Both the position numbers and the translations under genes were made by a program. This document shows positions 2,860-9,845 of a stretch of DNA of 40,148 nt, piece by piece. The stretch lies in the NCBI GenBank assembly GCA_013115125.1, contig JABANN010000315.1, positions 1-40,148 on the forward strand. The letters are read 5' to 3'. The stretch is from Perkinsus olseni (Eukaryota). Below the pieces are notes generated by a model, which saw only the letters and a list, made by a program, of their open reading frames with translations, was not told the origin of the DNA and did no database searches. Each line of letters begins with the position of its first letter. The first letter of the stretch is position 1.

Positions 2860-3901
2860 ATGAAGGAAATGCCGACGTTCCCGACAGTTGAAGAGAAAAT
2901 GCGCCTGCATGAGGTTGGCGACAATTCCCCAACCGCGAAGTTAGATTCCGAGGTTTGTTCAGGTTCATCTTCTCTTCGACAGTTTAGAAATTCGAGACAA
3001 CATCATATCTGGCTACACGCTGTCAGGAAATCGAGCTACGATCATGTGTAACAATCGCGAACACGCAGAGTCTCTGATGCTGAAATTTGCTGGACAAGTG
3101 CAGACGGTACGTGGGTTGATGTCCTACAATCACGAAAGCATTTCGAACTTGAGCACTCGTCTCCTGAGGGTTCTGTGGAATAATGACATGTGCGAGTTTA
3201 TAGGAATTGTATCGAGAACGATGCGGAGGCATGTTCTACTTTTCTAACAAGAGAGCGGAGATTTACAAGTCTCACGTCGCGACTGTTATCCGTGAGACCG
3301 CAGGTTGTCACGGCCGATCGATGTAGTTTGGGATCAGAAATGCTCCTTCCACATGTTGCACGTAACGTGGCTCGAGTTTGCGCATCGTCAGGTGGCCGTT
3401 CGCGTCGGTAAATTCAGTCCTGAGTTGGCGGAAGAGGCTGAAGCCGTGACAGAGAAGGGAGTAGGTTGCTACGCGATCGGGATCCCATAACCTCAGTGGT
3501 CCTCTGCGAGGGCAGACGCTTCCATAAGATCACTGGTTCGCTGTTGATCATGCGCTCGTAATGATTATAGCCGGCCAATTGTTGATGTCCATCTCGTCGC
3601 GATCCTCAGGAAACAGCCTCATACGAAGAGCCCCGGCCTGTTGGTCAGAACTATAGGGAATCAACGACAGCGGCCCCAGCTGCGAAAGAAACTCCACAAC
3701 AAAGCGTTGAGACTATGCCCCCGAAAGAAGCAGATATAAAAGTGAAATCTGTCGATGTACTCCTGCCACGATTGGCGTATCGTTTCAGGAACACCGAGCC
3801 AGTGGCGGAAACGGCGGTGAGTAGAGAGAATTCCTCTCTGCATCCGAACCCAGGATCCCAGGGATGAATTTTCCCTTCAGGCTGGCGACCATACGGTCTG
3901 A
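2860..3901 (+). CDS. Hypothetical multi-exon protein
   Basis: Short open frames (MKEMPTFPTVEEKMRLHE; CNNREHAESLMLKFAGQVQT; LSRPIDVVWDQKCSFHML; ESTTAAPAAKETPQQSVE) separated by GT..AG introns. No family recognised. Confidence 0.4.
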
Positions 3902-3974
3902 AATTGAAAGCTTGAGAGTAGAACTTTTCTAAGTAAAAACGGATAAGAACTTCGACTGAGAATTTACGCTGTTC

Positions 3975-5483
3975 ATGACGATGTACCGCGGCTAGCAGTG
4001 ATAGTCCGTGTTGGAAACGGGTGTTGCGTGTCTAATTAGCGAAGCACTCATCCGCGACACCAGTTTTGTGGACCAAAGTTCCGCACTTCCTCATCATGTG
4101 CCTACGCCTTCGAGTAGCCGCAGCTCTCCTCGGCCTAGAATTGGTGGTTGCGACTCTGAGTACTGTCCGCTCGGAAACCCGCAAGGCCCTCACCCTCGAT
4201 CACAGCGTACGGGCCGCGTTTTGTTCGTAGATCACTGTTGGCTTCCTCCCAGACTCACGCAATAAGCACCTCGTATCGCAAGGGCAGGCAGGCGAAGCAG
4301 AAAACGAGAACCGAGTTCAGGAAAACTCAGAGCGACTCGTTGATTTGCCGGGTCAGGGATATTAATAATGACGACTCCTTCGAGCTTCAGAAGTCCAAAG
4401 ACCGCTTGAGCCTTACCTTTCTGAGCCAAGACGGCGTCGTATCGTAAGTTGTTTACTTGCGCTTGCCATCTGGATTAATGCATTGCTTGTTTCAGGTCGG
4501 GCGCATCTGATTTATTCGCCGGCAGACTTCCATCCTCGATTCACCAGGCAGATGTTCGAACTTGCGAAGGCGCGGTTGACTTGCTATTTCAAGGCCTTCT
4601 TGAAAGCGATCGTTTTTTCGCTGAACTCACGGAAACGAGTGAAGGGCCGATTCCGGTCAGTACACTGCTCAGCTATCTCGGAGATCTAGCTGCTAGGAAC
4701 TGGGAGCTTCCTGGTTTGCCAGTAGGCTTATCTACCCTACAGTAATGGGGATTATCGCATCGCTCTCTCAGGGGATCGAAGCCACCAGACTGCCCACTCC
4801 AACTGAACCCGGGAAAGTTCTCTGTCACTCCAGGCTTATGGGTGATAACAACCACGCTTTCGAATTCTACCGGTAATTCCAAGGACCACAGAAACTTCAC
4901 TCTCACTTGGGCTCAGTGCGGGGAGAATAAAGCTCGAGATTTGTAGGATTCACAGCTCTGCAATTACCGTATAAGTTGTCTTTCAGTTCTGACGCGTCTC
5001 ATCAGTTCGCGCTTTCCCCCAAGCAGTTCAACGATTACAGGAAGAATTTCGCCTCGGCCACCACGGACAAAAATGTGCAGAATCACTATTTTCCTTTTAT
5101 GAGGGTTTGTACTGGGCCGCGGAAGGAAAGCTGAGCGAATTCGCGAATGCTCCTCGGAGGAGCAGCGAAAAAATGGGTAAAGTTCTCGTCGACTTCATTT
5201 GCGAGGAGCTTGGTGGGTGGGAAGCAAGTAAGGTGATTTAGAATGTTGAAGTAGTGTTCAAAGTTGTTGATGCACATGTTTATACGTTGTCCCGTGCTTT
5301 AACATATTGATCTCGAGTTTAAGTAAGTGCAGCTCTTGCCATATCTACGAGGTCGAACTGGGGGGTTACAAGTTCATCAATACCGCCGCGGGAATCCAAC
5401 GGGCTTCCCAGTTATCTCGTATTTTGGACCAAAATTTTTGGCCACTCGAGAAAGATTCATCCTGGCAAGTACGGGATGAATGA
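3975..5483 (+). CDS. Hypothetical multi-exon protein (approximate)
   Basis: Exon-like frames such as TQSDSLICRVRDINNDDSFELQKSKDRLSLTFLSQDGVVS|GTAAGT and a terminal EVELGGYKFINTAAGIQRASQLSRILDQNFWPLEKDSSWQVRDE*. Confidence 0.35.
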
Positions 5484-5511
5484 AATGAGAACAGAACTCG
5501 AATAGTTCATC

Positions 5512-6507
5512 ATGACGCATCAAAAGCAGTTATGCTCCCAGATAAAGGGGCTTATGACAGAGCTTTGGCAACAGGTGCTGCAAAGCCTGAACCGATCGAA
5601 TGAGTGGCTTAACGTTTCAGAGTACACTTGTGTCCGAATACCGAGGGCCCTCTATGTTGTCTGGTCGGCCCTATGGCGTACCACTGCAGGCGAAATCACA
5701 TGTCTCGTGCAGAACATGAGCAATACGCCACCTCCACACTCCCTTCAGACTGCTGAGGCATCGGCAAATCGGGATATATTTCCCTGAGCGAGGATGTCTG
5801 AGACTACGCAGCACAAGAGTTCGAGATCTCTTCAAGGCCTGTACTTGATGACGGTGCTCATGATGTGAAGGAAGCGACTGTCCGCTGCGGCGTGTCGCGC
5901 ATAAATGCTGAGATGGCTTCCCTCGGGTCGTCTATACCTCGGTCGCAGGTAAACTGATATCATATCAGTTTACCTGTGACCGAGGTATAGACGAGGTATA
6001 TCAGTGATATGGACCACCCGGACAAGGATCTCAGGGAATCTCGGCATCAAGCAGTGGAAGAAGTAGTAGCTTCCAGTAAGAGTGGGAGATTCACCCTACT
6101 TCGGGCGACCGCGAGCCGAGTCTCCTCCTTTGGTTCAGTAAGCGCAACTTCTGGATGGAAGCTTGCCGAAAACGGAGGTAATCGTCAGTATTACAGATCC
6201 CCCATTTGAGTGAACCTAAGAAGCCTCTCCAGCTGCAATGGGCCGGGCCCGGACGGAAGGGCAAGCTTCAACTATCTCCGACTCCGGGCGATGCTGTCCG
6301 TCATATAAGCTCTGCTGATTGCCACTACTACATGGGCTGCGGACTTGTAGAAACCAAAGCGGTAGAGTACTATTCAGAAATCGGTGATACTGTCATGCAA
6401 TTGCTCGAAAGATCGATTCTGCATTTCCCGGGAGACCTGAGAAGCAAAGGGTGAATGACGATCAGACGCTGTTCACCTTACGACTGTGCAACATAGTAGT
6501 AGCGTAA
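5512..6507 (+). CDS. Hypothetical multi-exon protein (contains the palindromic intron 5949-5990)
   Basis: MTHQKQLCSQIKGLMTELWQQ|...; VRCGVSRINAEMASLGSSIPRSQ joins in frame to TRYISDMDHPDKDLRESRHQ across the 42-nt GT..AG intron. 3' end approximate. Confidence 0.45.
5928..5994. repeat. Near-perfect 33-bp inverted repeat (palindrome with 1-nt centre)
   Basis: TCGTCTATACCTCGGTCGCAGGTAAACTGATAT-C-ATATCAGTTTACCTGTGACCGAGGTATAGACGA: 32/33 Watson-Crick pairs plus one G:T. Confidence 0.97.
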
Positions 6508-6972
6508 CCGAGGCTCCGAAAAATGAAAACGCTGCGCAAATGTGGAGAAGAGATCCCAGATCGGTGGAAGGGACTGCAATGCAGACACAACCCAAACCGG
6601 CGAGAATCTGATGACAGAAAACTATTAGGACGTTAGACATAACTTCAAAGTTACCAGCGTGGTCATAGCAAGATGCAAGTTCGATCTCACGGAGCTTCCG
6701 AGTGCGGTGCAGAAATGTCGCACTCGCTCTCGGTTGACTGCGGGGACATTACAGCTGTGCCTTTAGGGAGCATTGGGGTTTTTAGTTTTCCCCGCGTTTC
6801 CAGGAAAGAGACGTGTATCGTCTTACTCTGTGGAGCTCCGCCTATTTTCTCCACTTGGTAGACCAAAAACCCCCGGCGTGACGCTCTGATAAACCAGGGA
6901 TCTTCGTGCAGTGAGGAGAAAGCGCGAAATACTTGTAAATCTGTGGCGCCTCCTTCGTGGTTGATCATGTCA

Positions 6973-9845
6973 TTAATCATATATTTGTCTTTGACGCGTC
7001 TGGCTTTCTTCCTTCTCCGTTTCCTCTTCATCTCCAAACCTGAGCGATGCGACTGACGGCGGCTCTCCACAACTATCTTCACCAGTCATCTCCCTCTTGT
7101 CCTGGGTGGTTGTTGCAAGGCATTTACTCTCTAATTCTTCTAGCAGTTCATCAATGCGGCACCTACCGTGGGAAATCAAGATGACAAGGTGTTACGCTCA
7201 TTGCGTTTTTTGCTTGAGAATCAAATAGGAATCTTCCAACCATTATTGCCATGTGCCGATGATTCATTCACGCATGGCGAACACTCACCTTAGTTTTTCA
7301 TGTTTCGCAGCCACAGTTGGGTTTCTCTGTAGGCCGCGCGACGTCCTGAAACACGTGATCTTACCCTCCCTCAAATGTCTGAAAGATTGAGTAATCAGCT
7401 CACGACGGAGTCGTTAGCAAGGCAGATCCCAACTCTAAAACTCGGAAGTTGAGACTCAGGTTCGGTCTGACTGCTTAGCGGCCAGACTATGGCCAACTAC
7501 TGCTCTGCCAACGCGGATACTTACCCGGCGTTCTGAGGTACCGACTCTACTTCCTGTGGCCTCGGGTCGAAAAGGGCAGCGTTGTGTTCATACACGTCCA
7601 TCAGACTTTGCAGAGTGAGATTGGGTATCTCCTCGAGTGAGAGAATTGCCTCCAGTCGTTCAGTGATCTCGCGCTCTGTCGGGGTGTACCTGCATCGGTC
7701 GATTGCTTAGAACAAGCGCTGAAGTAACCTCGTGTCGACGCTCCCTCATCACCGACCATCGGATAATCAGGGATCTCAGCATCAATCTGAGTTGACCAGG
7801 GGGAATACTGCTCTGGGAGTCGGCAAAGATTAGGTATGCAAATTTAATCTGTAAGAACTCGCTCATGTACAATCGATCGAAATTTAGAGAATGCCTGCTC
7901 CAGCCGAGGAATTCGCGTCATCACCGACAGACATGCGACGACCTGAAAGGATAACTGTGCGCAAAACGATGAATTATACTTCTACCCATAGCCTGAAGTC
8001 TATCGACCATTCCCCAGCTGATGGCTTCACACCGAAATGTTTTGCAGCGCGTGTAAAAAGCTCCTCAGAACCTGCCAGGGAAGCTGGCCCTCATTGCTGC
8101 ACGAAGATGCCCCCGATGCAGCCTATAAGCGCGCGGACTGAGTCCGTCTTGCTTGTGCTCTCCAATGCTACAATTGCGGGGAAAGAACCTAGAGAGATAT
8201 CTAGCTTAAGCGAATAAGTACATCGGCATTCGCCCTCGGTTATCTTCATCAAGTCTCGATAATTCATCAACCACTCCGAGTCAGGGGTCACTTCCTCGGC
8301 GGGCCCGGATTCTAGCTGTGCCGAGGATCGAAGAGACGCTAGCCTGACGTTGGGGAGCACTGCTCAAATTCGTGCAGGAGCCGTCCGTTCCACACTTTTT
8401 AAAGTAGTCCTTCAGTGCTCTAACAATCTCACCGCTCGTCATGTCGGGGCCAAAAATGGATCGTGTGAACTCGCCCAGAATCTCGACGTTCCCCCATTGG
8501 ACTAAGCAACACGGCGTGCATGTGTGTTAGAGTTTGTAGTTCAATACGATTTCCGCCATAGTTGAACTCCTCAGCGTGCACTCGGTATCGCGGTTGTACC
8601 GTTACAAGAACACTGTGTAACCATAACGTGGCCAATGCGTGAGGCATTTTCTCTTCTACCGGCGATGCGAATTCAAATCGGTAGTGAAACGGGACGCTCC
8701 ATAACGTGAACGAACATCCACTGAATCACTTGGCCCCATTCCGTCACGTTCAAACAGTTCCGAATTCCATAGAAACTCGAGGAACCGAGCTACGAAGTTG
8801 TTCACAGAGTGCTCCCATCAATGCATCGTAAGAGGCACACGATTGACGGAATCAGTTTTAATTTCAATGCGAATGGGAAAACATGAAATTTCTTAATGTG
8901 GGTTCGAAGTATCCTACCAGGCTCTTCCACGGACAATGACGATGACGTCGAAACAGGTCGCGCCTAGAATAGATATGCGCGAGCAGTTCGGTAGAGCACC
9001 GTACAATTTCTGCCGCCCTCTTTCCCGGAGGTGGTGCCAGCGGCGGCTTCGGAGGGTGCATCGGGGTCGCATCTTTCGGGACACTGGGCGCTGGGGGAAG
9101 CTGTGACGCCTGGAAGGAATCCGCGGGCATGCGCACCCTGTCAAATTGACATCAGATAAATTGTAGCCTATCAGATCCAACCAAAGAGCCCGCAGCAGCA
9201 GGCGAACCTTCGTATCGACGAACAGCCTTTCATGCTGCGGTTGAAATCCGACTATCTCCCGAAACGGAGAGCCTTTTTCTCACTTTGAGAGAGTCAGCAC
9301 TTCTAATCTCGAACGCTTTCGATCGTGGACGAAGTCCGGTATCAGATCCCAGCCTGCACGAGGACGAGACCCTGCGAAACCATGAAGCTTATTAAGCCTA
9401 CTTTGGCGGCTCTGATGATCCGGTCAGGAGTTGTGGAGCTCGGGAGCCTGAAGATGCTGCGGCTTATACGGGTACTCTCAGAAAAAAAGCGTCGGTCGAT
9501 GTATTCCGCTGGCGGATAGGCAAATATCCTCGACAAGCGTCGGAGCTCGCCGAGAGAGTCGCGAATTGAGCCGATATCATCGCGACGGCGACAATGAGAG
9601 CGAGGAGGATCCCAGTCAACAGGATGTTTGACGAATGCCTCACCGATGGTATCCTGCAGCGGGGTTGGGTAAGTTGCGGGCGGCGGTGGAGGGCACTGAG
9701 AAATAATACCGAATGCGCAGCGAGCTCAAGAAGGTGGTCAGGTGCAGGAAATCAGAAACTCTGCCAAAGATGGTGGTTCACTCACTTGTGCAGTGAAGGG
9801 TCGAGACACAGGTCTTGTTGGCGGCTTCGTGAGTGGAGGAGGACT
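6973..9845 (-). CDS. Hypothetical large multi-exon protein (start not located; could be two genes)
   Basis: Minus-strand exon frames: PPPLTKPPTRPVSRPFTAQ|, SRIFAYPPAEYIDRRFFSE, HERLFVDTKVRLLLRALWLDLIGYNL, EWLMNYRDLMKITEGECRC, and a terminal ...EEETEKEESQTRQRQIYD*. Confidence 0.4.

Follow-up and report, generated by a model that had tools for sequence, protein, structure and literature searches.

The hairpin of a mirtron has its base at the splice sites. Hairpins are also produced by template switching, which makes perfect stems in one event and has given rise to thousands of hairpins in primates (PMC8794818; PMC10710096). A further system comes from Amoebophrya, which belongs to a lineage related to Perkinsus (the early-branching dinozoans) and in which short introns are likewise normal. 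Its introner elements are reported as RNA-validated repeated families, with terminal inverted repeats of 8-20 nt at the intron ends and direct repeats of 3-5 nt at the borders (PMC7789003).

The locus compared here with these systems is a 67-base near-perfect palindrome (5928-5994) in a stretch of 40,148 nt of Perkinsus olseni DNA, the whole of which is called the window. The arms are 33 nt long, 97% complementary and separated by a spacer of 1 nt. The palindrome and the small repeats around it are as follows.

5928..5960, no strand: left arm (33 nt), from an inverted-pair scan, with an exact pattern match at 5937-5960
5961, no strand: single unpaired centre base, read from the sequence
5962..5994, no strand: right arm, also 33 nt, reverse-complementary to the left save for T5977 against G5945
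5981-5989 and 5992-6000, plus strand: direct repeat CGAGGTATA, which straddles the right end of the palindrome, from a repeat comparison
5998..6010, no strand: second small palindrome, ATATCA-G-TGATAT

Watson-Crick pairs can form at 32 of the 33 arm positions and the remaining one is G:T, exactly as an earlier note on this DNA had described the arms (32 Watson-Crick pairs and one G:U). The sole exception is G5945 opposite T5977, a G:U pair when the plus strand is read as RNA and an A.C mismatch when the minus strand is. At the centre, ATATC occurs twice (5957-5961 and 5962-5966), together with a perfect 8-nt palindrome, TGATATCA (5955-5962). The recurrence of GAGGTATA that the same note had reported is present, in the form of CGAGGTATA at 5981 and 5992, and the first 8 nt of the small palindrome at 5998-6010 repeat ATATCAGT at 5962-5969. 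The trinucleotide GGT flanks the palindrome (5926-5928 and again 5995-5997). Taking out the palindrome and one GG would remove 69 nt, a multiple of three.

If transcribed, the RNA of either strand would be predicted to form a 33-bp duplex immediately. The calculated RNA fold of the 67 nt alone is -57.0 kcal/mol for the plus strand and -53.5 kcal/mol for the minus strand, while the DNA fold of an 87-nt stretch (5918-6004) is -35.8 kcal/mol. The surrounding 121 nt fold at -66.4 kcal/mol (z -10.2), which none of 200 shuffles equalled. When the whole 40-kb window was scanned in 5724 segments of 84 nt, the palindrome was the most stable locus (-59.3 kcal/mol; next locus -37.6 kcal/mol) and the six top segments all overlapped it. 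An inverted-pair scan of the window at seed 12 gave two pairs, of which the palindrome is the only long one and the other has 19 nt at 84%. This other palindrome (14534-14559) has overlapping 19-nt arms, 84% complementary, around the centre GAGGTACCTC. No copy of the arm with up to three mismatches occurs in the 40-kb window beyond the two arms themselves. Two metagenome scans and one viral scan with the arm returned 0 matches, in collections that probably do not include Perkinsus olseni.

The DNA itself was recovered from two studies. An 11,740-nt contig of X1 (study P1; depth 88.5) and one contig of X3 (study P2; depth 152.5) fully cover 3000-9000 with 0 differences, and both run past the palindrome into unique sequence on either side. 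Since either run may itself be the source of the window, only one of the two is certainly independent and their agreement amounts to at least one independent confirmation.

The palindrome is best explained, with a probability of about 0.6, as a real and recent template-switch inverted duplication in probably non-coding DNA. We infer the template-switch origin, the recency, the non-coding status and the lack of function alike, and probably no function should be assigned to it. A single template switch in replication (fold-back copying) would have started at the short pre-existing palindrome TGATATCA, where ATATC is repeated. About 30 nt of the neighbouring strand would then have been copied as their reverse complement, and small slippage repeats would have been left behind at the right edge.

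The anatomy is consistent with such an event. A reverse-complement copy adjoins its template, the 33-nt arms being 1 nt apart, and microhomology in the form of a short palindrome lies at the supposed switch point (TGATATCA, with ATATC twice). At the right edge there are direct repeats of 8-9 nt (CGAGGTATA at 5981/5992 and ATATCAGT at 5962/5998). One mismatch in 33 suggests that the event is young. The earlier note had offered a fold-back or template-switch origin among several interpretations, and this is the part of it that fits the anatomy; its intron and mirtron readings are unsupported, as discussed below. An ancestral sequence was sought by hand from the local direct repeats, and no simple two-switch scheme explained all of them.

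The palindrome shares with the template-switch hairpins described in PMC8794818 and PMC10710096 an adjoining reverse-complement copy and near-perfect pairing along the whole stem. Here, the palindromic core could serve as the switch point, and the repeats are at one edge. The hairpins of those reports were inferred from reconstructed ancestors (PMC8794818; PMC10710096), whereas the present case is one of anatomy and is not a demonstrated RNA gene or miRNA. The direction, age and mechanism of the duplication are likewise read from its anatomy.

A diverged relative, X8 (95-99% likeness), has no contig at ≥ 95% on 5814-6215, a region that is one of several gaps, as 6 other bins of 30 are also without cover. 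X8 carries the same species label. Its scattered contigs show differences of 1-5% from the window, mostly transitions, which suggests that the one label covers diverse strains or haplotypes. At 8518-8565 X8 has 15 other letters in place of 46 nt.

The nearest units to the palindrome on either side are convergent.

5154..5429, plus strand: nearest RNA-like contig to the left (X7), its strand taken from GT..AG joints upstream and not from the contig itself
6687..7288, minus strand: 3' part of a convergent gene, with RNA-supported introns at 7040-7082 and 7163-7288

X7 is a run guessed to be RNA (it is not on record as RNA), with contigs at depth 2-6. It behaves like RNA, in that its contigs have plus-strand GT..AG joints of 285, 47, 46 and 52 nt, along with CT..AC joints of 43 and 126 nt. 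The GT..AG joints that give the left-hand unit its strand are those of the spliced contigs upstream, at 3000-4788. On the other side, the frame of the convergent minus-strand gene is open across both intron junctions and ends with a stop at 6687-6689. The palindrome is about 500 nt from the left X7 contig and about 700 nt from the stop of the convergent gene, and at these distances from flanking convergent units it would lie in a spacer or in a 3' untranslated zone. A Pfam search of 30 ORFs, including both frames that flank the palindrome, found nothing near it.

The ordinary introns of this DNA are known mainly from one gene. A search with an amino-acid-transporter exon led to P0001, a Perkinsus olseni hypothetical protein encoded in the window. 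By exact spliced mapping, all 497 of its residues are accounted for at 21442-18080 on the minus strand, with 16 GT..AG introns of 231, 79, 180, 45, 48, 420, 55, 60, 41, 46, 80, 48, 396, 49, 47 and 47 nt. The gene (18080-21442) thus has 17 exons of 33-162 nt, and ten of its 16 introns are 41-60 nt long. With the six RNA-supported X7 joints (43-285 nt), these 16 annotation-derived introns make up a reference set of 22. Tiny introns of 41-60 nt are therefore common here. ORF lengths in the window match those of shuffles (longest 212 codons, against 157-232 in three shuffles), a likeness that the finely split structure of the transporter gene explains. There was no sign of an alternative code, since freeing any stop codon lengthened the ORFs about as much as expected. 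A literature search on the Perkinsus olseni genome and its introns gave nothing on intron structure among the matches listed.

A transcribed hairpin with a role at the RNA level is an unlikely alternative to template-switch DNA of no function. In this reading it would be cut by a Dicer-like or RNase III enzyme to yield siRNA or a miRNA-like product, or else act as a two-way signal for cleavage or termination. The latter is conceivable because the hairpin folds on both strands, and the palindrome is situated between convergent transcription units. Also in its favour are the 33-bp duplex on either strand and the Dicer-like proteins of P. marinus that a review lists on the basis of BLAST (PMC6027434). 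Template-switch hairpins can, moreover, turn into miRNA genes, although apical loops of ≥ 10 nt are described as preferred (PMC10710096). A loop of 1-3 nt on a perfect stem is unlike the typical miRNA precursor. The palindrome is also single-copy in the window, and Rfam miRNA models score it at 19.9-37.6 bits on both strands against gathering scores of 45-99, as they would any long hairpin. The best of these matches, on both strands, is MIR6136 (37.6 bits, gathering score 99).

The earlier note had also raised a mirtron. Like a mirtron, the palindrome is a short hairpin of about intron size whose stem contains GT and AG, but the candidate intron leaves out 21 nt of that stem, which fall in what would be exon, and the excised 42 nt keep a stem of only 11 bp (-12.4 kcal/mol). 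The mirtron reading is not supported.

It is similarly improbable that the palindrome belongs to a family of small hairpins that are mobile or repeated, such as a MITE, a foldback element or an introner element of the Amoebophrya type. Relatives of Perkinsus do carry hairpin introner elements and, as described for these, the hairpin here would bring the putative exon ends together (PMC7789003). The only flank repeat, GGT, might be read as a border repeat of this type, with the palindrome and one GG making up 69 nt, a multiple of three, but a 3-nt flank match arises easily by chance. The repeated tRNA-like motif in the transporter introns (see below) suggests that repeat-derived introns may exist here. 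However, no further copy of the arm with up to three mismatches was found in the window or in the metagenome and viral scans, and the 22 reference introns are without an inverted repeat of more than 9 nt. The Amoebophrya elements are repeated families with inverted repeats at the intron ends, as reported in PMC7789003, whereas the palindrome is single-copy in the window, its GT..AG borders lie asymmetrically inside the stem and nothing similar is seen among the 22 local introns. There are no repeats at the intron ends if the GT..AG borders are used, and trivially there are if the whole palindrome is taken as the intron.

The earlier note had centred on a 42-nt intron locked inside the hairpin. 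Its symmetrical counterpart and the flanking open frames are given with it.

5949..5990, plus strand: candidate GT..AG intron, 42 nt, donor 5.97 bits, acceptor -4.58 bits
5932..5973, minus strand: mirror-image GT..AG 'intron', 42 nt, donor 5.97 bits, acceptor -5.11 bits
5802..5948, plus strand: upstream open frame, 49 codons (open over 5802-5957)
5991..6206, plus strand: downstream open frame, 72 codons (open over 5991-6209)

That an unannotated plus-strand gene has a real spliceosomal intron at 5949-5990, hairpin-locked and either newly born or remodelled, is quite unlikely. The borders CAG|GTAAAC (5946-5954) and TATAG|ACG (5986-5993) are both present, as is an in-frame TGA at 5955-5957, and the TAG of the acceptor itself (5988-5990) is a further in-frame stop. 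A length of 42 nt is plausible, since short introns are normal in the window and the references include introns of 41, 43 and 45-60 nt. Splice sites were scored with weight matrices built from the 22 reference introns, the references themselves being scored leave-one-out. The donor is a good one, as its 5.97 bits fall within the reference range (1.1-8.8) and are matched by only 5.3% of 4557 GTs. The acceptor, in contrast, scores -4.58 bits, which 64.8% of the 5286 AGs in the window equal or exceed, whereas all 22 references score 2.5-12.8. The sequence ahead of this AG is purine-rich, with a pyrimidine share of 0.47 in the last 15 nt, equal to the reference minimum.

The candidate therefore resembles the ordinary short GT-AG introns (41-60 nt) of Perkinsus olseni in its length and its CAG-preceded, GTAA-type donor, and differs from them in the purines before its AG, its extreme self-pairing and its lack of a known gene. 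For the 16 short reference introns, each taken with 21-nt flanks, the folding energy is -0.11 to -0.34 kcal/mol per nt, compared with -0.70 for the candidate. A search of the 22 reference introns for inverted repeats of more than 9 nt gave none. No reference intron is built in this way, which argues that hairpin-locked splice sites are not a habit of this genome. A 33-bp duplex of -57 kcal/mol lying over both splice sites should hinder or even block their recognition.

Because the palindrome is mirror-symmetric, the minus strand carries this 42-nt GT..AG unit as well. The CT and GT of one arm would turn into AG and AC in the other, and the candidate GT..AG pair is probably a by-product of this symmetry, its use in splicing being unlikely. 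The existence of the mirror copy thus tells against the intron. X7, the only RNA-like run, has no contig on 5430-6997 and speaks neither for nor against splicing.

Removal of the 42 nt does join two open frames, as the earlier note had stated, but to no greater extent than chance allows. Among 6175 GT..AG pairs of 38-60 nt in the window (transporter gene excluded), 1008 (16.3%) join ≥ 121 open codons and 166 (2.7%) meet both flank lengths. Nor is the join unique: when the candidate donor is paired with an acceptor at 6232 (284 nt, 2.6 bits), 73 open codons are connected just as well. The start of the downstream frame coincides exactly with the candidate acceptor, since the TAG there is itself a stop codon.

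Coding potential was assessed with a codon model trained on the P0001 coding sequence, which is weak because it derives from one membrane protein. On held-out chunks of P0001 the model picked the true frame in 8 of 8 cases, with a mean of +0.09 bit per codon against -0.40 for the wrong frames. The upstream frame scored -0.06, the top of the six frames and at the 89th percentile of 484 comparable ORFs, and its coding status is ambiguous. The downstream frame scored -0.38 (9.5th percentile); there, no frame stands out and codon bias is absent. An ad-hoc gene finder was discarded as evidence, as it scored the two strands alike (26.8 and 30.2) and returned zero-length exons.

In a database that includes the window's transporter protein P0001, no longer protein matched either flanking frame. 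An exhaustive protein search with the 72-residue frame gave three hits, none of them near-identical, as the window's own annotated protein would be. All three were rejected as internally repetitive proteins, unrelated in kind, whose whole-protein scores sum near-identical weak stretches. P0003 has cystatin-like repeats (best pairwise E 0.047). P0005, also built of repeats, reaches a pairwise E of 1e-6 at best, which would be lost once the size of the library is taken into account. P0004 is of low complexity, with 0 stretches matched. By these searches, there is no credible homolog or annotated protein for either flanking frame.

On balance, a true intron has in its favour the good donor, the typical length, the internal in-frame stops between open frames of 49 and 72 codons, and an upstream frame with the best codon score of six. 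An unannotated gene is also possible in a genome so densely packed with small exons, and the yardsticks have their own limits: the codon model was trained on a single membrane protein, and RNA backs six of the 22 reference introns, the other 16 being taken from annotation. Against it stand an acceptor below all the references and most random AGs, a mirror intron, frame-joining at chance level, and flanking frames that have no homolog and, downstream, no codon bias. The intron that the earlier note had proposed is for these reasons not upheld, and its reading of the hairpin as a splicing switch is not supported.

A related proposal is that of an intron caught at birth. A single template switch would have copied the end of an exon in reverse, thereby supplying the AG, and either the 42-nt core or the 67-69-nt hairpin would be removed from an unannotated transcript in a structure-guided manner, as in the introner elements of Amoebophrya. 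We regard this as very unlikely. If it were true, the creation of an intron by inverted duplication would be seen directly, in a lineage whose intron biology is unusual, and removal of the hairpin or its core from a transcript would make this a dated and mechanistically transparent intron gain. The origin of introns is an active question in Perkinsus, Amoebophrya and dinoflagellates. As it stands, the significance of the locus is small, in that it is one more short inverted duplication of the template-switching type. It also carries a caution. The symmetry of a palindrome is enough to place a GT..AG pair on each strand and, where a genome's exons and introns are tiny, finding open frames next to such a pair has almost no meaning.

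That a fold-back artefact of assembly or sequencing made the palindrome, the case that the earlier note had named as fatal to its proposal, is scarcely credible: chimeric palindromes arise in some library types, but the X1 and X3 contigs, separately built from two studies, traverse this one unchanged, and the sequence on both sides of it is ordinary and single-copy.

Several other features of the window were seen. Contigs of X7 over 3000-4788 reveal a plus-strand transcript with GT..AG introns at 3107-3391, 3742-3788, 4207-4252 and 4444-4495. Its spliced product has frequent stops in all three frames; candidates for its nature are a spliced non-coding RNA, a long untranslated region and an incompletely spliced transcript. 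An open frame at 16747-17193 on the plus strand encodes a clear CCCH zinc finger (PF18044, E 2.5e-10), the only other piece recognisable by Pfam among the 30 ORFs. At gathering thresholds Rfam gave 0 hits in the window, and ARAGORN found 0 tRNAs.

The third transporter intron (20643-20822, minus strand) has the junction TCGCAG|GT (20815-20828), and the exact complement of this stretch, ACCTGCGA, lies about 22 nt inside the intron. The octamer TCGCAG|GT also occurs at the candidate donor of the palindrome (5943-5950), where it is paired with ACCTGTGA. Since the octamer is mostly donor consensus, the coincidence is probably due to chance.

The motif GGTTCGANNCC, which we take to be the consensus of the tRNA T-arm or Pol III B-box, has five matches in the window, and all lie inside five different transporter introns, three on one strand and two on the other.

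18578-18588, 19077-19087, 19560-19570, 19714-19724 and 20411-20421: matches to GGTTCGANNCC

Its expected count in the window is 0.40, and five matches were reached in 0 of 100 shuffles. ARAGORN found no tRNA at the copies, Rfam gave no match at E ≤ 1, and a literature search on tRNA-like intron sequence in Perkinsus returned nothing relevant. The intron copies have in common only a core of about 17 nt and may be tRNA- or SINE-derived intron sequence.
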